Position numbers and translations under genes: made by a program. Below, one piece after another: positions 3,367 to 59,660 of a DNA stretch of 64,000 bases. Source of the DNA: Parcubacteria bacterium C7867-006 (GTDB lineage Bacteria; Patescibacteriota; Minisyncoccia; Phycocordibacterales; DATDWN01); contig LFCP01000001.1 in NCBI GenBank assembly GCA_001189155.1, positions 147,779-211,778 on the forward strand. The letters are read 5' to 3'. The notes below the pieces were generated by a model. That model made no database searches and was not told the DNA's origin. It saw nothing but the letters and a program-made list of their open reading frames with translations. Every line of letters begins with the position of its first letter. Positions within the stretch are counted from its first letter, which is position 1.

Positions 3367-3496
3367 TTCTGAATACTGCACTCAGCAGGTATGCCATTTT
3401 CGGAATAGATTCTCGTGTGGTTTATGCATACAAGTCCCGTCAGCTTTACTTCACTATAAAAGCGTTGCACTGACGCGACTCGAGCGGCGCACGAGC

Positions 3497-3570
3497 TGGC
3501 TGCCAGACTTGGACTCGAACCAAGATACTCGCCTCCAGAGGGCGAAGTCCTACCATTAGACGATCTGGCA
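3497..3570 (-). tRNA. tRNA-Gln (anticodon CUG), CCA encoded
   Basis: Reverse complement is TGCCAGATCGTCTAATGGTAGGACTTCGCCCTCTGGAGGCGAGTATCTTGGTTCGAGTCCAAGTCTGGCAGCCA. It has the U1-A72 pair and G73 typical of bacterial tRNA-Gln, anticodon loop CUCUGGA and a TTCGAGT T-loop. Confidence 0.85.
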
Positions 3571-3675
3571 ATACAACTATTTGAGTAGTCTCAAATAGAA
3601 CCTAATAACAGAAGAATACCCGAAAAATAGCCTTTTTACAAGAAATATAGACGTTTATTTTGCTATAATTTAATT

Positions 3676-4275
3676 ATGAAAATTATTAAGCCTGTTTCTC
3701 TGGTCGATGTTAAGAGAGCTTTTGTAATCTCTGATCTTGGGAAAATTAAGGGAAATCAAAAAGGAGTATCTGAAAAAACGTTTGAGAATAATTTTAATAG
3801 AGCAAAAACAAAAGTCCTTAAGTTTTCTGAAGCAGATTTAGATAAACACATAGAATGGTCTAAAAGATTGAATGCTTATAATAATTGTAAATGGTACATT
3901 GCCGAGTTTTCTCCCCCTGAGCTTGGTGTATGGAGGAGATCATCAGGTCTTCCACTCAGTTGGACAAATCAGTCTCTTCTAGAGACATCAAAAAAAATAA
4001 ATAAAGTTCTCAGTAGTGATTCAAAGTTTTTAAAGAAGAGGTCGAGATATGCTATTTATAATATATTAAATAGTAAAAGTCAGATTTCACAAAAGGAAAA
4101 ATATTTATATCCCATTGTTTTTAAAAATAGTGAAGGGACTAGAGGTAGAAGTTATTTAAGATTTAAAACTAAGGGAGATATAGATGATGGGTGTATGAGG
4201 TCTATTGCCATGACTATAAGTGGTAAAAAATCTATTCTGGTATATTTTGGTGTGCCAAAGGAGATTACTAAATAA
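3676..4275 (+). CDS. Hypothetical protein (199 aa)
   Basis: ORF with ATG start; tightly followed by the GIY-YIG and VanW genes (3-nt gap, then a 4-nt overlap). No recognisable domain. Confidence 0.45.
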   Translation: MKIIKPVSLVDVKRAFVISDLGKIKGNQKGVSEKTFENNFNRAKTKVLKFSEADLDKHIEWSKRLNAYNNCKWYIAEFSPPELGVWRRSSGLPLSWTNQSLLETSKKINKVLSSDSKFLKKRSRYAIYNILNSKSQISQKEKYLYPIVFKNSEGTRGRSYLRFKTKGDIDDGCMRSIAMTISGKKSILVYFGVPKEITK

Positions 4276-10646: not shown

Positions 10647-12299
10647 TTAATTCTTTTTGATCATCCACTTTTTGATATCATCAAAAGTCCCGCCAACTTT
10701 TTTATTGGGATTAAATATGTTTTTAGGGTCAAATATATTTTTTGTTTCAGCAAAAAGTTTGTTTACTCTCTCTCCAAATTGTTCCAAAAGATATGGTGTT
10801 CTGATTATTCCATCGTTATGCTCAGCAGAGTTTGAGCCTTTGTATTTCTTAACAATACTGTAAACTTTTTTAGAAATTTCCAGTATTGCATCAGATGTAA
10901 AAGGAGAGTCTAGATCCATAAGTGGAATGATGTGGAAGTTCCCATTACCGAGATGTCCTTGAACCGTGTAATCTAGTTTATATTCATCCAAAATAGCTTT
11001 TATTCTTGGTAGAAATTCTGGTAGAAATTCTGGTTTAACAATTAAATCGTCTATAAAAGGTGCGGTTCTTTTACCATGAACATGTTTTCTCAATAGGTTA
11101 AAGCTCTCATGCCTTATGTCCCAGTATTTTTCTGCTTCATTACTATTTTTTGCAATATGCATTTTAAAGTGGAAATCTGTTAGATGATCTCTAACTTCGG
11201 TTAGTTTACTTATCACTTCTTCTTCTGTATTTCCACTAAACTCAATCATTAGAATAAGTTTTGGAACCCCACCAGATAAAACCATAAATGTTTCTGGTAT
11301 GAATTGGAAACCTAGTTTTAGTGCGCCCCAGAATCCAAGTTGTTTAAAAAAGTCAAAGAAAAATCTTACAGCCAGAATCATACTTTTATCATCATATGTT
11401 TCCAGACTCTCTGGTTTGTAGGGAAGTATACGAGTTACTAGCTCGCTTACTTTTTCTAAAGAAGGAAGGAAAACAACGAGTAGATTTGAGTATTTTGCTA
11501 TAGGAGTTAGATTAAAAGTTATTTCCGTCACAATTCCCAAGGTCCCTTGTGAGCCCGCGATTAGTCTGCATAGATCAAATGTCTGGTTGTCCTTATCATA
11601 AACATTCCATAGGTAGTATCCTGATGAATTTTTTGAGACATCAGGTTTTGCAGACATTATTTCATCGTAGTTCTCTTTTATAAGATCAAAAAGTTTCTTA
11701 TAGAGGTTGCCTTCAAAGTTATTTTCAGATATTTTTTGTTCTAACTCACTTATTGTCATCGGCCTGAGCTCGTATTCATTTCCATCAGAAAATACAACTT
11801 TCAGTTTTTTTAAATGATTTTCTGTTTTGCCGTATTTTATGCTTTTTTCTCCTCCAGCATTATTGGCGACCATTCCTCCAACTGCACAAATCTCTCTAGA
11901 TGCTGTATATGTGGGCATTATTTTACCAATTTTTCTTGTGGCTTTATCAAAATCTCGGTAGAAACAACCCGGCTCAACAATCCCGTAGTCATCTTTGACT
12001 TCAATAATCTTATTCATGTAACGAGTAAAATCTATGATGACAGAGTCATTCAAAGGTCCTCCACTCATATCTGTTCCTGCGGATCTAGCCGTTATTGATA
12101 GGGAAGGTTCTTTTTCTTTATTTTTGTTTAGCCATTTAACGGCATTTTGTACATCACTACTACTTTTAGGAAATAGAACTAGTTTGGGTTTTATTTCGAA
12201 GAGGCTAGCATCTCTTGAATATTTTTTTAATATTTCTTCACTGTTCTCAACATCACCCTTAAAATCTTTTTTAATTTCTTCAAGTATTTCTGTATTCAT
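10647..12299 (-). CDS. FAD-linked oxidase (GlcD/D-lactate dehydrogenase-like)
   Basis: FAD-binding PCMH-type N-terminus (SARSAGTDMSGGPL), 550 aa. Confidence 0.7.
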   Translation of the reverse strand: MNTEILEEIKKDFKGDVENSEEILKKYSRDASLFEIKPKLVLFPKSSSDVQNAVKWLNKNKEKEPSLSITARSAGTDMSGGPLNDSVIIDFTRYMNKIIEVKDDYGIVEPGCFYRDFDKATRKIGKIMPTYTASREICAVGGMVANNAGGEKSIKYGKTENHLKKLKVVFSDGNEYELRPMTISELEQKISENNFEGNLYKKLFDLIKENYDEIMSAKPDVSKNSSGYYLWNVYDKDNQTFDLCRLIAGSQGTLGIVTEITFNLTPIAKYSNLLVVFLPSLEKVSELVTRILPYKPESLETYDDKSMILAVRFFFDFFKQLGFWGALKLGFQFIPETFMVLSGGVPKLILMIEFSGNTEEEVISKLTEVRDHLTDFHFKMHIAKNSNEAEKYWDIRHESFNLLRKHVHGKRTAPFIDDLIVKPEFLPEFLPRIKAILDEYKLDYTVQGHLGNGNFHIIPLMDLDSPFTSDAILEISKKVYSIVKKYKGSNSAEHNDGIIRTPYLLEQFGERVNKLFAETKNIFDPKNIFNPNKKVGGTFDDIKKWMIKKN

Positions 12300-12350
12300 A
12301 TGTTTAGTTTAACAAATACTTTAGCTTTTCCATATAACAGAGTTAACAGA

Positions 12351-12380
12351 CTTGACGTTCTGGCTACAAAAGGTGTAGTA
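12351..12380 (+). promoter_or_regulatory. Sigma70-like promoter of GC-rich cassette A
   Basis: TTGACG (12351-56), an 18-nt spacer, then TAGTAT (12375-80). Confidence 0.5.
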
Positions 12381-12397
12381 TTTTACCCGGAGGCACG

Positions 12398-12617
12398 CAT
12401 GAGTACTGTGAAGAATATCTCTCACACACCAAACAAACACCAGGCTACCGCACAGCCCATTCGCCGAATCGTTTGTCCAGTCTGTCACATCAGCCAGCCG
12501 GACATTCGCCAGACGAAGTGTCAGAGCTGTGGTCGGTTGCTTCCGGCTCGGCCTGGCGTAGTGACTGCACCTGTTCCGTCCAAGCGGTGGTTCGGGGGGA
12601 TCGCTCCCTCCAGGTAG
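12398..12617 (+). CDS. Small zinc-ribbon protein (GC-rich cassette A)
   Basis: GGAGG (12388-92) lies 5 nt before the ATG. Product is MSTVKNISHTPNKHQATAQPIRRIVCPVCHISQPDIRQTKCQSCGRLLPARPG..., with a CPxC...CxxC zinc-ribbon motif. GC-rich codons sit inside an AT-rich genome. Confidence 0.55.
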
Positions 12618-12651
12618 ATATCCGCAAGACAGAATCCCACCTCGTGCAATA

Positions 12652-12728
12652 CCGCCATGGATCCCAGCCCATGGCAAAGCCCTCGTCGCTCGTCGTCGCT
12701 TGTCGTCGTCGTCCCCGTAGGGCTTTTT
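12652..12728 (+). terminator. Hairpins downstream of the cassette A gene
   Basis: gccatgg-atcccagc-ccatggc hairpin, then agccct...(CGT-rich loop)...agggct followed by ttttt. Confidence 0.4.
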
Positions 12729-12766
12729 CTATATTTGAAATTTTCTTTGTGCTATATTGATTCAGA

Positions 12767-13309
12767 ATGAAAGAATCTTTTATAGTTCAATTTTTTAAAA
12801 AGTGGAGACAAATAGGGGCCATAGCACCCAGTTCTATTTTTTTAGTTGAGGATATGCTTTCTGAGGTTGATTGGGATAGGGCATCAATAATTATTGAGTT
12901 GGGAGCAGGCAGTGGTACTTTTACAAAACAAATATTGAAAAAAATGAGACCAGAAGCAAAACTTTTTGTTTTTGAAATAGATCATGTTTTTTTAAAAAAA
13001 TTAAATAAAATTATTGATTCTAGAATAGTCATAGTCTCTGAATCGGCAGAAAACTTATCAAAGTACCTTGATGGTAAAAAAGCAGATTATGTTATATCTG
13101 GCATCCCTCTTTCAAATTTAGATAAACATGTAAAATCTGGCATTATTTATTCCGCTATGGAGAGTATGGTTTCTGGGGGTATATTTTTGCAGTTTCAGTA
13201 TTTCCCTGAATCACTAAATTTTCTAAAGAAGTATTTTGACGATGTTAAGCTTAAATTTACGTTCTTAAATACACCTCCAGCTTTTTATTACATTTGCCTA
13301 AAAAAGTAG
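12767..13309 (+). CDS. Class I SAM-dependent methyltransferase
   Basis: SAM motif I (IIIELGAGSGTFT). Confidence 0.65.
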   Translation: MKESFIVQFFKKWRQIGAIAPSSIFLVEDMLSEVDWDRASIIIELGAGSGTFTKQILKKMRPEAKLFVFEIDHVFLKKLNKIIDSRIVIVSESAENLSKYLDGKKADYVISGIPLSNLDKHVKSGIIYSAMESMVSGGIFLQFQYFPESLNFLKKYFDDVKLKFTFLNTPPAFYYICLKK

Positions 13310-30415: not shown

Positions 30416-30444
30416 TTTACTTGTATATTTTCTGATGCTAGTAT
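30416..30444 (+). promoter_or_regulatory. Sigma70-like promoter of GC-rich cassette B
   Basis: TTTACT, a 17-nt spacer, then TAGTAT. Confidence 0.4.
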
Positions 30445-30475
30445 CTTTTGGGACGTACAAACACATGGGGGGTTT

Positions 30476-30658
30476 ATGTTGTATTTGCGCGGGGTGTCTG
30501 GTCCGAGAAAGATACTCGCAACTCATCCTGAACTGAAGGAACTGCCGCCATTTGAGCGGACAGTCGCCATGATTAGGCTTCTCCGTCAGGAAGCTGAACG
30601 GCTCAAGTCGAAGAAGATCGAACAGTTCGATCGCGAAATTCCAGAATTGTTGTTCTGA
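30476..30658 (+). CDS. Small helical protein (GC-rich cassette B, 60 aa)
   Basis: GGGGGG precedes the ATG. Product is MLYLRGVSGPRKILATHPELKELPPFERTVAMIRLLRQEAERLKSKKIEQFDREIPELLF. GC-rich with its own terminator. Confidence 0.45.
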   Translation: MLYLRGVSGPRKILATHPELKELPPFERTVAMIRLLRQEAERLKSKKIEQFDREIPELLF

Positions 30659-30668
30659 ACACTCCACA

Positions 30669-30701
30669 CAGTCGGGCTTCGGCCCGACTGTTCCCGTTTT
30701 T
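30669..30701 (+). terminator. Intrinsic terminator of cassette B
   Basis: cagtcgggc-ttcg-gcccgactg (9-bp stem, UUCG loop) then ttcccgttttt. Confidence 0.7.
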
Positions 30702-30702
30702 G

Positions 30703-30773
30703 TGCGGGATACGAGAATCGAACTCGTGTCTCATCCTTGGGAAGGACGTATCATACCACTAAACTAATCCCGC
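30703..30773 (-). tRNA. tRNA-Gly (anticodon CCC), CCA not encoded
   Basis: Reverse complement is GCGGGATTAGTTTAGTGGTATGATACGTCCTTCCCAAGGATGAGACACGAGTTCGATTCTCGTATCCCGC; close to E. coli tRNA-Gly; anticodon loop TTCCCAA. Confidence 0.8.
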
Positions 30774-46318: not shown

Positions 46319-47296
46319 ATGGACCTAGAAAAATTTTTACAAAACCCAAAGACTGCATACCTAGCTCAGAGCTATAAGGCTCTTTTAGAGCAAGAGTCTT
46401 CTACAGAGCAAATGATAGAGAGTGATCCTTCACTTGCTGAGTTAGCGTACTCAGAACTTGAGGGTCTGAAAGAGCAAAAAGAAGCTCTTATGAAACAAAT
46501 GCAAGAGATTGTTTTTGAGGAGGAAAAAGAGGAAGAGTTTCCTAATGAGATTATTCTTGAAGTTAGAGCTGGGGCAGGAGGTGAAGAAGCATCTATTTTT
46601 GCCGAAGATTTGGCTCATATGTATACACGATACGCAGAAAACCAAGGTTGGTCTGTTTCTCCAATAGACGAGTCTAGGAGTGCGGTGGGGGGTTACAAAG
46701 AAGCCTCTTTTGAGATACGAGGACGTGATGTTTATAAACAACTTCGTTTTGAAACAGGTGTTCACAGAGTTCAGAGAATCCCGGCTACAGAGAAAATGGG
46801 GCGTGTTCACACTTCAACAGCAACGGTTGCCGTGCTTCCTGTACGAAAGAAAACTAGTATTGAAATAAAACCAAGTGATTTGGAAATTGAGACATCTCGT
46901 TCTGGTGGCGCTGGAGGACAGAATGTTAACAAAGTGGAAACGGCTGTAAGAATTATACATAAACCAACAGGAATAGATGTTCGCTCTACATCACAGCGAA
47001 GTCAGCTCAAAAATCGTGAAGCGGCAATGAGTATTTTGATAGCAAAACTGGAAAGAATGAAAGAAGAAGAGGAAGCTGCAAAGTATTCAGCAGATAGAAA
47101 GTCACAAGTTGGAACCGCTGATAGATCAGAGAAAATAAGAACATATAATATCCTACAAGACCGTATAACAGACCACCGTATTAAGCAGTCTTGGCACAAT
47201 ATTGAGAAGATTCTAGCTGGGGGACTAGAGCCAATAGTGGAGGCAATGGAGGGCTTTGATGGAACTAGTGTAAATAGTGGAGACTCTGATGAGTAA
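46319..47296 (+). CDS. prfA: Peptide chain release factor 1
   Basis: PAT tripeptide ([17 protein letters not shown]) and GGQ motif ([15 protein letters not shown]). Confidence 0.85.
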
Positions 47297-47340: not shown

Positions 47341-47369
47341 TTGACAAATATATTATATAGTAGTATAAT
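47341..47369 (+). promoter_or_regulatory. Consensus-perfect sigma70 promoter of GC-rich cassette E
   Basis: TTGACA (47341-46), a 17-nt spacer, then TATAAT (47364-69). Confidence 0.65.
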
Positions 47370-47406
47370 TATTAAAGATCTAACAATTTCCTTGAAAGGG
47401 GAAACA

Positions 47407-47796
47407 ATGCCCTATACGAAGACCTTCGCCGTTGTTACCAGCCTTCTCGCTTTTCAGATTGCCATGATGTGGTTCGCAGTTGGTTCCACTTCTGGCGGTA
47501 ACGAGTTCAAGACTGTGACAACCCACAGCTACGACGTTCCGTTCGAAAGGTACTGCGGTTATCTGGAAGAAGTTGCCCATGGAGTCATCCAGTTCGACGG
47601 CAAGGACCCAGTGGACATCGCGTATCTTTTCTTCCGCTCATCGGTTGGGAAGCCTAGCATCCCGCGTATCATCTACGGGGACACAGAGAGACTCAGTAAG
47701 ATTGAGTCGGGTCGTCATTACGACATCGGTGTCCGTCAGTACGGTGGTGGACTAAACTTCCCACGCCGTCTTGATGTAGTCGAGTCGTGCAAGTAG
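47407..47796 (+). CDS. Secreted/membrane-anchored hypothetical protein (GC-rich cassette E, 129 aa)
   Basis: AAGGGG SD lies 5 nt before the ATG. N-terminal signal/TM helix (TKTFAVVTSLLAFQIAMMWFAVGS), GC-rich codons. Confidence 0.55.
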   Translation: MPYTKTFAVVTSLLAFQIAMMWFAVGSTSGGNEFKTVTTHSYDVPFERYCGYLEEVAHGVIQFDGKDPVDIAYLFFRSSVGKPSIPRIIYGDTERLSKIESGRHYDIGVRQYGGGLNFPRRLDVVESCK

Positions 47797-47811
47797 TAGA
47801 TCTGAGCACAA

Positions 47812-47860
47812 GTCGGTGGGTTGATCCCACCGACAGGACCACACATTTGTGTGGTTTTTT
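47812..47860 (+). terminator. Tandem hairpin terminator of cassette E
   Basis: gtcggtggg-ttgat-cccaccgac, then ccacac-attt-gtgtgg followed by tttttt. Confidence 0.7.
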
Positions 47861-47935: not shown

Positions 47936-48667
47936 ATGGAAAAAACAAGTAATTCATCATCAAATAGCGGAAACAGCGTTGTAGACGCTCTATTTTCTGC
48001 CGGTGCTCATTTCGGCTTTATAAAGTCTAGACGACACCCATCTACAAAACCTTTTATATACGGAGTAAAAAATAAAATTGAGATATTTGACCTTGAGAAG
48101 ACAAAGGATTCTTTGGATAAAGCAGTGGCTTTTATTGAGAGTATCGCTTCAAAAAATGGTTCAGTTCTATTTGTTAGCGGTAAAAACGAAGCAAAGGGTG
48201 CTATTACAGCAGTAGCTGAGTCTATAAATATGCCTTATGTTGCCGGAAGATTTATTGGAGGAACTTTGACTAACTTTCCAGAAATACGAAAAAGAGTAGA
48301 GAAGCTAGAGTCTCTTGTATCACAGAAAGAAAAAGGAGAACTAGTAAAATACACTAAAAAAGAGAGACTTTTGATTGACCGAGAGATAGATAAATTGCGA
48401 GAGTTTTTCTTTGGTCTTTCTGTTATGAAGAAACTTCCTGATGCTGTATTTATTATTGATGCTAAAAGGGAATCTATCGCTGTAAAAGAGGCAAAATATA
48501 TGGGAATCCCAGTTGTTGCTTTGTGTGGAACAGACAACAATCTAAACGAAGTAGAGTTTCCTATCCCTGGAAATGATGCTTCAAAAGCAAGTATCACATT
48601 TTTCCTAGAGAAAATTGCAGAAGCTTACAAGGCTGGCCAGTTGAAGAAACCTACAGCTACTGTATAA
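47936..48667 (+). CDS. rpsB: Ribosomal protein S2
   Basis: ALFSAGAHFGF...IFDLEKT, typical S2. Confidence 0.85.
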   Translation: MEKTSNSSSNSGNSVVDALFSAGAHFGFIKSRRHPSTKPFIYGVKNKIEIFDLEKTKDSLDKAVAFIESIASKNGSVLFVSGKNEAKGAITAVAESINMPYVAGRFIGGTLTNFPEIRKRVEKLESLVSQKEKGELVKYTKKERLLIDREIDKLREFFFGLSVMKKLPDAVFIIDAKRESIAVKEAKYMGIPVVALCGTDNNLNEVEFPIPGNDASKASITFFLEKIAEAYKAGQLKKPTATV

Positions 48668-59333: not shown

Positions 59334-59404
59334 CTAGTAGAAAATTGAATTGTATTGACGTTTACTACTTATTATGTGAGAGTTATTTATGGAGGACCAG
59401 AAAG

Positions 59405-59608
59405 ATGAAGACTCTGAATCTCAGCCAGACTGGTCGTGCTATGGTGACGACGGCGTTGATGTACTTTCTCTTCATCGCTGTCGCGATCACACTACTCCTC
59501 AGTATCGGGACGTTGGGGTGGTACCTGTTTCTGGCCGTGGTTATCGCTTTCGCGGCCTTGAGGGCCTACAGCGACTGGGACAGGAGGAACTGGAGGGGGT
59601 TTTTCTAA
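59405..59608 (+). CDS. Small two-TM membrane protein (GC-rich cassette F, 67 aa)
   Basis: GGAGG (59391-95) lies 9 nt before the ATG. Product is MKTLNLSQTGRAMVTTALMYFLFIAVAITLLLSIGTLGWYLFLAVVIAFAALRAYSDWDRRNWRGFF. An upstream TTGACG (59355-60) may be its -35. Confidence 0.5.
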   Translation: MKTLNLSQTGRAMVTTALMYFLFIAVAITLLLSIGTLGWYLFLAVVIAFAALRAYSDWDRRNWRGFF

Positions 59609-59618
59609 TCCTTCTCCA

Positions 59619-59660
59619 TAGGGCTACCCGCGATTTCGTCGCTGGTAGCCCTTCAGCTTT
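59619..59660 (+). terminator. Intrinsic terminator of cassette F
   Basis: agggctaccc-gcgatttcgtcgc-tggtagccct followed by tcagctttt. Confidence 0.6.

Follow-up and report, generated by a model that had tools for sequence, protein, structure and literature searches.

We identified a small GC-rich mini-gene in a 64,000-nucleotide stretch of the chromosome of Parcubacteria bacterium C7867-006 (contig LFCP01000001.1). This whole stretch is called the window below, and coordinates refer to it. The element lies on the plus strand between the genes for a FAD-linked oxidase and a SAM-methyltransferase, in a chromosome of Paceibacteria type (Parcubacteria/Zambryskibacteria-like). It is best read as an autonomously transcribed and translated unit that encodes a 72-amino-acid (aa) zinc-ribbon protein, ends in a functional, conserved terminator and 3' untranslated region (3'UTR), and occupies an exchangeable slot. 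Judged from sequence comparisons, that much is highly probable; the whole package of autonomous zinc-ribbon unit, exchangeable slot, and the roles inferred for its parts has, in our estimate, a probability of roughly 0.7.

The mini-gene sits in the strongest GC island of the window (12371-12750), where GC content reaches 0.62-0.64 (0.62 in 150-nt windows) against 0.358 overall. The predicted transcription unit spans 12352-12728 (plus strand) and comprises a promoter, a Shine-Dalgarno (SD) sequence, a 72-codon open reading frame (ORF), and a 3'UTR. A consensus scan placed the -35 hexamer TTGACG at 12352-12357 and, after an 18-nt spacer, the -10 hexamer TAGTAT at 12376-12381, together matching the consensus at 9 of 12 positions. 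Such a match is weak by itself, with four promoter-like sites observed in the 700-nt region and 1.1 expected. The -35 has the same letters in two related loci (cited here by our handles, L003 and L231), and the block GGTGTAGTATT around the -10 is kept in L003, L231, and L015. Since promoter, SD, ORF, and 3' hairpins are all conserved across independent relatives, we take the promoter to stand above chance. The SD sequence GGAGG (12389-12393) lies 5 nt upstream of the ATG at 12399; CCCGGAGG, which covers the SD region, is kept in L003, with related forms in L005 and L015. The coding sequence (CDS), assigned from the ORF, its syntenic homologues, and the substitution pattern by codon position, runs from 12399 to 12617 on the plus strand and encodes MSTVKNISHTPNKHQATAQPIRRIVCPVCHISQPDIRQTKCQSCGRLLPARPGVVTAPVPSKRWFGGIAPSR.

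This layout had been proposed in a preliminary description made from the letters of the DNA, and every element of it was found where stated: the promoter and the GGAGG-N5-ATG start are present, the CPVC and CQSC motifs occupy residues 26-29 and 41-44 of the 72-aa product, and the ORF list contains the two overlapping frames that had been reported (12321-12677, minus strand; 12473-12760, plus strand). The public gene call (P0001) differs, giving a 105-aa protein that starts at 12300, within the divergent promoter region, upstream of the conserved promoter and abutting the start codon of the oxidase. The start at 12399, with its SD sequence, is the one that the evidence supports. Gene callers having taken the 105-aa start, the exact 72-aa product has no database record. 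Identical copies of the region were found in one JGI metagenome contig and one Logan assembly.

Comparison with relatives indicates that the ORF is a real gene. Using the FAD-linked oxidase as a search query against one genome per species, we obtained 79 loci, the closest of which belong to Zambryskibacteria/Paceibacteria-type metagenome-assembled genomes. Many carry a GC-rich island of 300-600 nt at the equivalent position, directly upstream of the oxidase and divergent from it, so the search for this spacer in relatives that had been suggested at the outset was productive. The syntenic position holds homologous ORFs in L003, L005, L015, and L231, with weaker homologues in L008 and L012. The cysteines follow the pattern C-x2-C-x11-C-x2-C (Cys 26, 29, 41, and 44, mapping to 12474-12530), which supplies the two CxxC knuckles of a zinc ribbon, a class in which they lie ~10-20 residues apart on a beta-hairpin. 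In an alignment of six ORFs, three of the four are invariant, and the fourth is missing from the weak L012 homologue only. A C-terminal tail, RWFxGxAPxR, is common to the window gene, L003, and L005; in the window it reads RWFGGIAPSR (12585-12614).

The closest pair of homologues, L003 and L231, differ at 44 positions of the CDS, distributed 8/8/28 over the three codon positions. Across codons 27-80, which hold the zinc ribbon and the C-terminal half, 16 nucleotide changes produce only four amino-acid changes, and the N-terminal third is far more variable than the rest of the protein. This pattern shows what sequence comparison would recognise as purifying selection on the zinc-ribbon and C-terminal half. 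Between the window and L003, the proportions of synonymous and nonsynonymous differences (pS and pN) are 0.58 and 0.38 for the mini-gene and 0.69 and 0.048 for the adjacent oxidase; the mini-gene is therefore constrained, yet it evolves about eight times faster than the oxidase at nonsynonymous sites. The preliminary reading was of a protein-coding mini-gene that brings its own promoter, SD, and terminator region. The coding signal on which it depended is thus present, in the codon-position pattern and in the conserved cysteines, and the comparative evidence agrees with it.

The family appears to be tiny and restricted to this lineage. When 1.84 billion cluster representatives were searched exhaustively with phmmer, only four clusters were returned: the protein itself, an 80-aa L003-type protein (P0002, E = 4.5e-11), the L015 protein (P0003, 8.4e-5), and a 201-aa multi-zinc-ribbon protein (P0004, 5.7e-4). 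The last has a weak precomputed Pfam DZR hit and lies on an unrelated contig among different neighbour genes. A word-indexed protein search returned the self cluster alone.

GC-rich intergenic islands of AT-rich genomes are classically RNA genes, and the presence of long ORFs on both strands, together with a minus strand slightly better folded than its shuffles (z = -2.06), would suit a structured non-coding RNA (a divergent RNase P, transfer-messenger RNA [tmRNA], signal recognition particle [SRP] RNA, 6S RNA, or something novel) in which the ORF is a by-product of GC content. We consider this very improbable. The third-codon-position excess, the conserved cysteines, and in-frame indels are marks of coding sequence, and the plus strand folds with a z of only -0.81. 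At gathering thresholds, Rfam cmscan found only four tRNAs in the window, and ARAGORN found the same number and no tmRNA. A permissive Rfam scan of 12200-12850 gave best E-values of 1-8, all for unrelated eukaryotic or Burkholderia families, with no match for such a gene even at E ≤ 10, and no family was detected at the cassette in 17 related loci. RNase P RNA, tmRNA, and SRP RNA, which the preliminary description had set aside for want of their universal motifs, are thereby excluded by Rfam and ARAGORN as well, with no significant score across 12320-12720. Moreover, sister genomes have the 5' ~220 nt swapped for an unrelated TraR/DksA zinc-finger coding sequence with a significant Pfam match, which limits any conservation at the RNA level to the last ~110 nt.

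These last nucleotides form a conserved element in their own right. Downstream of the stop codon lies a C-rich motif, UCCCACCUC (12635-12643, plus strand), that is unpaired in predicted folds. It reads UCCCACCU(C/U) in the window, L003, L004, L015, and L223 and CCCCACCUU in L005, with variants in L016, L009, and L116. It is followed by hairpin 1 (12654-12675, plus strand), with a 7-bp stem (GCCAUGG/CCAUGGC) and a conserved 8-nt loop, AUCCCAGC. Among relatives the stem is 6-8 bp long and the loop is fixed as (U)UCCCAGC, and the hairpin is predicted in every homologue that has the element. When nine sequences were aligned by hand according to structure, there was no non-canonical pair at any of the seven pair positions, and four of the seven showed two-sided compensatory changes.

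Hairpin 2 (12676-12728, plus strand) is of terminator type, as judged from folds, a covarying base stem, and a U-run. Its base stem pairs AAAGCCCU (12676-12683) with AGGGCUUU (12719-12726), and the U-run occupies 12724-12728. The interior consists of 35 nt of A-free (UCG)n sequence. The preliminary description had reported two hairpins at this place, the second with a (CGT)n-rich loop; both hairpins stand, but the repeat is predicted to be helix rather than loop, with RNAfold giving CG/GC steps split by 1x1 U.U mismatches in 10 of 10 homologous elements. In relatives, a base stem AAAGCYC/GRGCUUU encloses an interior of 30-50 nt that consists almost entirely of U, C, and G in UCG repeats, and the fold z-score of the terminator hairpin is -2 to -4.7 for most homologues. 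The base stems covary (GCUC/GAGC, GCCC/GGGC, GCCCCU/AGGGGC, and ACCCCA/UGGGGU). Between L003 and L231, the ~120-nt 3'UTR differs by one substitution and one 2-nt indel and is identical across the terminator hairpin, while ~35% of third codon positions differ, so the constraint on the 3'UTR is stronger than that on synonymous sites. Constraint and covariation, both read from aligned sequences, show the 3' hairpins and the C-rich strand to be a conserved RNA element, probably acting as a terminator combined with an element for RNA stability or regulation. It is single-copy in the window, was found among the loci at the syntenic site only, and has no match in Rfam 15.

That this unit is exchangeable is seen from what other genomes hold in its place. 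In L004, L006, L009, L010, L016, L223, and L225, the same slot carries a different GC-rich mini-gene, whose 82-105 aa product is a C4 zinc finger of TraR/DksA type (PF01258, with E-values as low as 8e-12; PHROG 54) and bears a GDMxDQA-like motif at its N-terminus. The PF01258 cutoff is passed by L004, L006, and L010 (E from 8e-12 to 6e-8), with L009 and L016 just under it, and the 72-aa protein itself has no match to this family at E ≤ 1. Outside the 3' element, tblastx and blastn found no similarity in any frame between zinc-ribbon and TraR-type coding sequences. The 3' motif lies behind the PF01258 (zf-dskA_traR) ORFs of L004, L006, L009, L010, L016, L223, and L116; L006 and L010 retain the terminator module alone, and L008, on the zinc-ribbon side, has a plain terminator. 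The terminators of L005 (zinc ribbon) and L006 (TraR) are 90% identical across 71 nt. Overprinting, in which the two coding sequences would be the same DNA read in other frames, was rejected in view of the absence of cross-type tblastx similarity.

Zinc-ribbon, TraR, and empty slots are interspersed on the FAD-oxidase tree. The pair L004 and L006 illustrates the exchange: their oxidase proteins are 99.6% identical and their flanking DNA is ~97% identical, but their TraR/DksA-like mini-proteins are only 41% identical, with saturated synonymous sites. The mini-genes lie upstream of the oxidase match, on the minus strand at ~3400-4000 and ~1380-1950, respectively. In the alignment, 45-50 of every 50 columns match in the flanks and 18-31 of 50 in the island, the diverged block beginning at the start codon of the oxidase and ending ~15 nt beyond the T-run. 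The pS/pN values are 0.114/0.002 for the oxidase, 0.243/0.018 for the methyltransferase, and 0.69/0.39 for the mini-gene, so the transcription unit is far older than its surroundings. As far as aligned sequence can tell, this is the signature of allele import or of long-lived alternative alleles beside homogenised flanks. A diversity-generating retroelement was also considered and rejected, as no part of the island recurs in the window to form a template/variable repeat pair and the allele differences are not adenine-specific.

In L007 the mini-gene has been lost. Only ~125 nt separate the oxidase and methyltransferase starts, and a terminator remnant, GGCTCGTCCTTGTCAGGCTTTTTCCTTATAT, persists there; because this (UCG)n remnant is still present, the empty slot points to a secondary deletion and not to primary absence. 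The behaviour of the neighbours bears on another possibility, that the ORF encodes the precursor of a ribosomally synthesized and post-translationally modified peptide (RiPP) tailored by the flanking enzymes. A hypervariable small cysteine-containing ORF between an FAD-dependent oxidase and a methyltransferase invites that thought, but L007 keeps both enzymes without the ORF, the gene downstream of the slot is not a methyltransferase in L009, L010, and L012, and the alternative occupant is a bona fide TraR/DksA zinc finger. The CxxC...CxxC spacing, moreover, fits a zinc ribbon, the variable part is N-terminal, and there is neither a leader or cleavage motif nor a dedicated transporter or protease. 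Of all the explanations we weighed, this one is the least credible.

The 3' element was also sought beyond the oxidase loci. The terminator pattern is of low complexity, and among the metagenome matches listed, nearly all were chance matches from GC-rich genomes; a single true instance among those listed was L116 (positions 1-380 of WNFI01036699.1), where the CCAGC-loop hairpin and the (UCG)n terminator come after the 3' end of a TraR/DksA-type ORF, with a tRNA gene next in line. The pairing of the motif with a zinc-finger gene is therefore not confined to the FAD-oxidase/methyltransferase synteny. A scan of viral contigs with the terminator pattern gave 21 matches, all of them unrelated phage terminators or chance matches in coding regions. 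Within the viral set, a group of related IMG/VR phage contigs (L082-L102) shares a conserved terminator, AAGCTCC(T/G)CTCGTCGTCGTATTCGAG(A/C/G)GGAGCTTTTT, which is an unrelated chance match.

A 3'UTR kept behind two unrelated coding sequences raises the question of whether the unit has a dual function in which, besides the protein it encodes, the 3'UTR is the main conserved functional part, acting in trans as a released small RNA or as a protein-binding platform. One possible mode would be pairing of C-rich motifs with G-rich ribosome-binding sites. Conservation far above that of synonymous sites, a stem that covaries around a loop of fixed sequence, two C-rich motifs unpaired in all folds, and the single copy in the window would all suit such a dual function, and it is compatible with our preferred explanation. 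On the other side, the sequence downstream of the stop codon shows no promoter of its own, and pairing with the unit's own SD amounts to only ~4 bp. Trans targets of the C-rich motif were sought in the window as complementary sites (AGGTGGGA, one mismatch allowed), and the 36 found against 31 expected are no enrichment. The reduction of the element to its terminator module in L006 and L010, and to a plain terminator in L008, is a further difficulty. We regard a trans-acting 3'UTR as possible, though on balance unlikely.

The composition of the mini-gene sets it apart from everything around it. Its GC content at the three codon positions (GC1/2/3) is 0.56/0.57/0.61, and that of the 41 long ORFs of the window is 0.47/0.35/0.24. 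Their GC3 averages 0.243 ± 0.034 with a maximum of 0.33, which places the mini-gene ~10 standard deviations above the ordinary genes of the window. GC-biased gene conversion, whose tracts would be expected in the homologous flanks, was rejected as the sole cause, those flanks being AT-rich up to a sharp boundary. A GC3 this extreme, an orphan protein with four clusters in 1.84 billion, its loss in L007 and degenerate cysteines in L008 and L012, and the weak P0004 homologue among other neighbours on an unrelated contig could together suggest foreign DNA of recent arrival or a junk ORF still evolving, a neutral remnant from a GC-richer donor that serves the cell in no way. However, relatives whose FAD-oxidase is as little as 77% identical have an occupied slot, conservation extends to the promoter and SD, the zinc-ribbon half bears the marks of purifying selection, and the 3'UTR is near-invariant. 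Homologues keep a GC3 of 0.45-0.62 despite saturated synonymous sites between them, so the high GC is not the fading trace of a recent transfer; unselected DNA should drift to the AT richness of the host. We therefore hold a foreign or junk origin to be improbable. The high GC content is maintained by some force, and we infer that this may be selection on the transcript.

Several observations weigh against reading the unit as an autonomous, regulatory zinc-ribbon gene, and we gather them here. The promoter and terminator were assigned from consensus and conservation, and the block replacement comes from a single near-identical genome pair. The plus-strand z-score given above means that the whole transcript folds like dinucleotide-matched shuffles, which leaves RNA-structure selection unproven as the cause of the high GC. 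The cysteine patterns of L008 and L012 are degenerate, suggesting relaxed constraint or decay in some lineages. The curated libraries Pfam, NCBIfam, PHROG, and PADLOC gave no above-threshold match to the 72-aa protein; its best matches there were LdpA_Fe-S-bd (E = 0.0014) and TIGR04402 (E = 0.013, 15.8 bits against a 70-bit cutoff), and its homologues match DZR_2 at E = 0.0027-0.055, under the 27-bit cutoff. A PDB sequence search was non-significant as well (Elf1, E = 0.088; L40e, E = 0.27). The AlphaFold2 (AF2) model, built on a three-sequence alignment, reached a pLDDT of 61.6; it shows short strands around both cysteine knuckles and disordered tails, with pLDDT of 75-80 for residues ~21-50 only and low confidence elsewhere. 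The N-terminus (MSTVKNISHTPNKHQATAQPIRR) is basic and predicted to be disordered, and the protein lacks the N-terminal helix bearing a D-x-x-D-x-A-type acidic motif that its TraR/DksA slot-mates possess.

With family matches below threshold and a model confident for the ribbon only, any function assigned to the protein is a guess. It may be a small regulator that depends on zinc and acts by binding to nucleic acid or transcription machinery, a tentative suggestion prompted by the class of its fold, the basic character of its disordered tails, and the RNA-polymerase-binding TraR/DksA type of its slot-mates. In the mechanism we favour for the autonomous unit, a sigma-70-type promoter would drive a short leader with a strong SD sequence, from which a 72-residue protein would be made, a single C-x2-C-x11-C-x2-C zinc ribbon flanked by disordered basic tails. 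Transcription would stop at the long (UCG)n hairpin, acting as an intrinsic terminator, downstream of the C-rich strand and the hairpin with the AUCCCAGC loop. The unit, from promoter to terminator, would be held in a fixed slot and swapped among strains as a block, likely by homologous recombination in the conserved flanks. It is because strains would exchange the unit in this way that sister genomes hold diverged zinc-ribbon alleles, a TraR/DksA-type mini-gene, or a remnant.

The neighbourhood of the slot is cellular. The FAD-linked oxidase (10650-12299, minus strand) flanks the cassette and is divergently transcribed, and genes for META and MscL also lie nearby. The methyltransferase gene that follows the cassette has a conserved extended -10 element (TGnTATAnT) at 12750-12769 of the window and at the equivalent positions in L003-L008 and L016. 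This element ends ~8-12 nt before the ATG, and no SD sequence is visible, which suggests from sequence that the methyltransferase mRNA may be leaderless or nearly so. An obvious SD sequence was likewise not seen for the divergent oxidase gene.

The mini-gene at 12399-12617 looks like one of a set of moron-like cassettes in this lineage. Three further mini-genes in the window, with GC3 of 0.57-0.78, are situated between core genes and each have a promoter-like site, an SD sequence, a small orphan ORF, and a GC-rich hairpin with a T-run. The first, a 129-aa orphan (ORF 47407-47796, region 47341-47860, plus strand; GC3 0.62), is flanked by prfA (46319-47296) and rpsB (47936-48667) and has a TTGACA...TATAAT-like promoter, an SD sequence, and two GC hairpins. 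Three relatives (L233-L235) whose release factor 1 (RF1) is 85-92% identical lack it, and in L236 a different, 64-aa membrane mini-gene replaces it. The second encodes a 67-aa hydrophobic protein without a family match (ORF 59405-59608, region 59347-59660, plus strand; GC3 0.78), with a TTGACG promoter-like site, a GGAGG sequence, and a terminator hairpin with UUCGUCGCU in its loop; its neighbours on either side are a class-II aminoacyl-tRNA synthetase gene and dnaE. The third, a 60-aa orphan (ORF 30476-30658, region 30430-30700, plus strand; GC3 0.57), ends in a hairpin, ACAGUCGGGC-UUCG-GCCCGACUGU, with a U-run, and abuts tRNA-Gly (30702-30773, minus strand). All three end in ordinary short terminators without the (UCG)n element.

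These cassettes may represent an undescribed class of GC-rich, self-transcribed mini-genes that are exchanged at fixed slots between Paceibacteria core genes, in which zinc-ribbon and TraR-like genes behave as idiomorph-like alleles sharing a CCCAGC-loop and (UCG)n 3'UTR, with their GC content kept by selection on RNA. This is a speculative proposal, and the odds are against it in this full form; if it is true, a conflict-driven or strain-specific regulatory module would be indicated. Hardly anything is known of the small proteins and regulatory RNAs of the candidate phyla radiation (CPR), which gene callers mis-annotate, as the 105-aa call illustrates. That a 3' motif is retained where a TraR/DksA-type regulator of RNA polymerase takes the place of the coding part amounts to a natural experiment, and the GC3 anomaly raises the question of which force holds small transcripts at high GC against an AT-rich genomic background. 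Were the cassettes strain-specific regulators or conflict genes, they would serve as markers of recombination-driven microdiversity in uncultured organisms.

Among known proteins, the closest comparison by position is with the TraR/DksA family (PF01258; PHROG 54). TraR/DksA proteins bind RNA polymerase, and acidic residues of their N-terminal helix reach the secondary channel. The zinc-ribbon proteins share with these slot-mates a GC-rich gene with its own promoter, the 3'UTR motif, a similar size (72-114 aa against 82-105 aa), and four cysteines in two CxxC knuckles. The spacing differs, however, being C-x2-C-x11-C-x2-C in place of the C-x2-C-x17-C-x2-C of PF01258, which has a conserved Arg/Pro between its knuckles, and since the acidic N-terminal helix is missing, the secondary-channel mechanism is not transferable to the 72-aa protein. 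Its pattern, (R/K)xxVCPxCxxxxPxxxxxCxxCG, is that of generic zinc ribbons (DZR PF12773/PF18912, zinc_ribbon_2, archaeal/eukaryotic L40e, and Elf1), and its cysteine spacing is identical to that of TIGR04402, 'mobilome CxxCx(11)CxxC'. Unlike generic zinc ribbons, it stands alone, has a lineage-specific RWFGGIAPSR tail, and matches those families below threshold only.

The 3' element likewise combines familiar features. As in intrinsic terminators, its hairpin has a base stem rich in GC and leads into a U-run, but ordinary terminators have loops of 3-8 nt and this hairpin is 50-70 nt long with an A-free (UCG)n interior. That interior, with C-G/G-C steps and periodic U.U mismatches, resembles (CUG)n hairpins, and the fixed loop of the upstream hairpin resembles the seed loops of 3'UTR-derived small RNAs.

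Variable ORFs at a single chromosomal position, each with a long imperfect hairpin, also recall the attC cassettes of integrons. On that model, the 3' hairpin would be an attC-like single-stranded recombination site at which a recombinase swaps cassettes. The layout of an ORF with an imperfect 3' hairpin of 60-70 nt, the occurrence of different ORFs with a common 3' element in one slot, and the variable presence among relatives of other GC-rich mini-genes of the window all speak for site-specific mobility. Unlike integron cassettes, each unit has its own promoter, and RYYYAAC/GTTRRRY core sites are not visible. The hairpin lies inside the diverged L004/L006 allele (~80% identity) with no sharp junction, the element occurs once in the window, with the other three cassettes ending in ordinary terminators, and no integrase is found among the neighbours of the slot, the rest of the window not having been scanned exhaustively for recombinases. 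There is little reason to expect that such a recombinase is at work.

The mini-gene as a whole is best described as moron-like, after the concept of the phage moron (Hendrix/Juhala). Morons are extra genes of lambdoid prophages that carry their own promoter and terminator and have a composition unlike that of their neighbours. Full-text literature searches for small genes of high GC content, in Patescibacteria or in AT-rich genomes, yielded nothing relevant, and, within the libraries and literature searched, the zinc-ribbon family, the 3'UTR motif, and the GC3 anomaly of this self-contained, moron-like mini-gene appear undescribed. Searches of PHROG, phage, and plasmid sequences with the mini-protein and the 401-bp unit gave no significant match. 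Like morons, the cassette is an independent unit with a predicted sigma-70-type promoter and a factor-independent terminator, both conserved in relatives; it lies between conserved genes, has an atypical composition (GC3 0.61 against 0.24), and is present, absent, or replaced among otherwise collinear relatives. Unlike morons, it resides in a CPR chromosome between housekeeping genes, outside any prophage, in a slot that is occupied across genus-level divergence, and it carries a conserved, structured 3'UTR.

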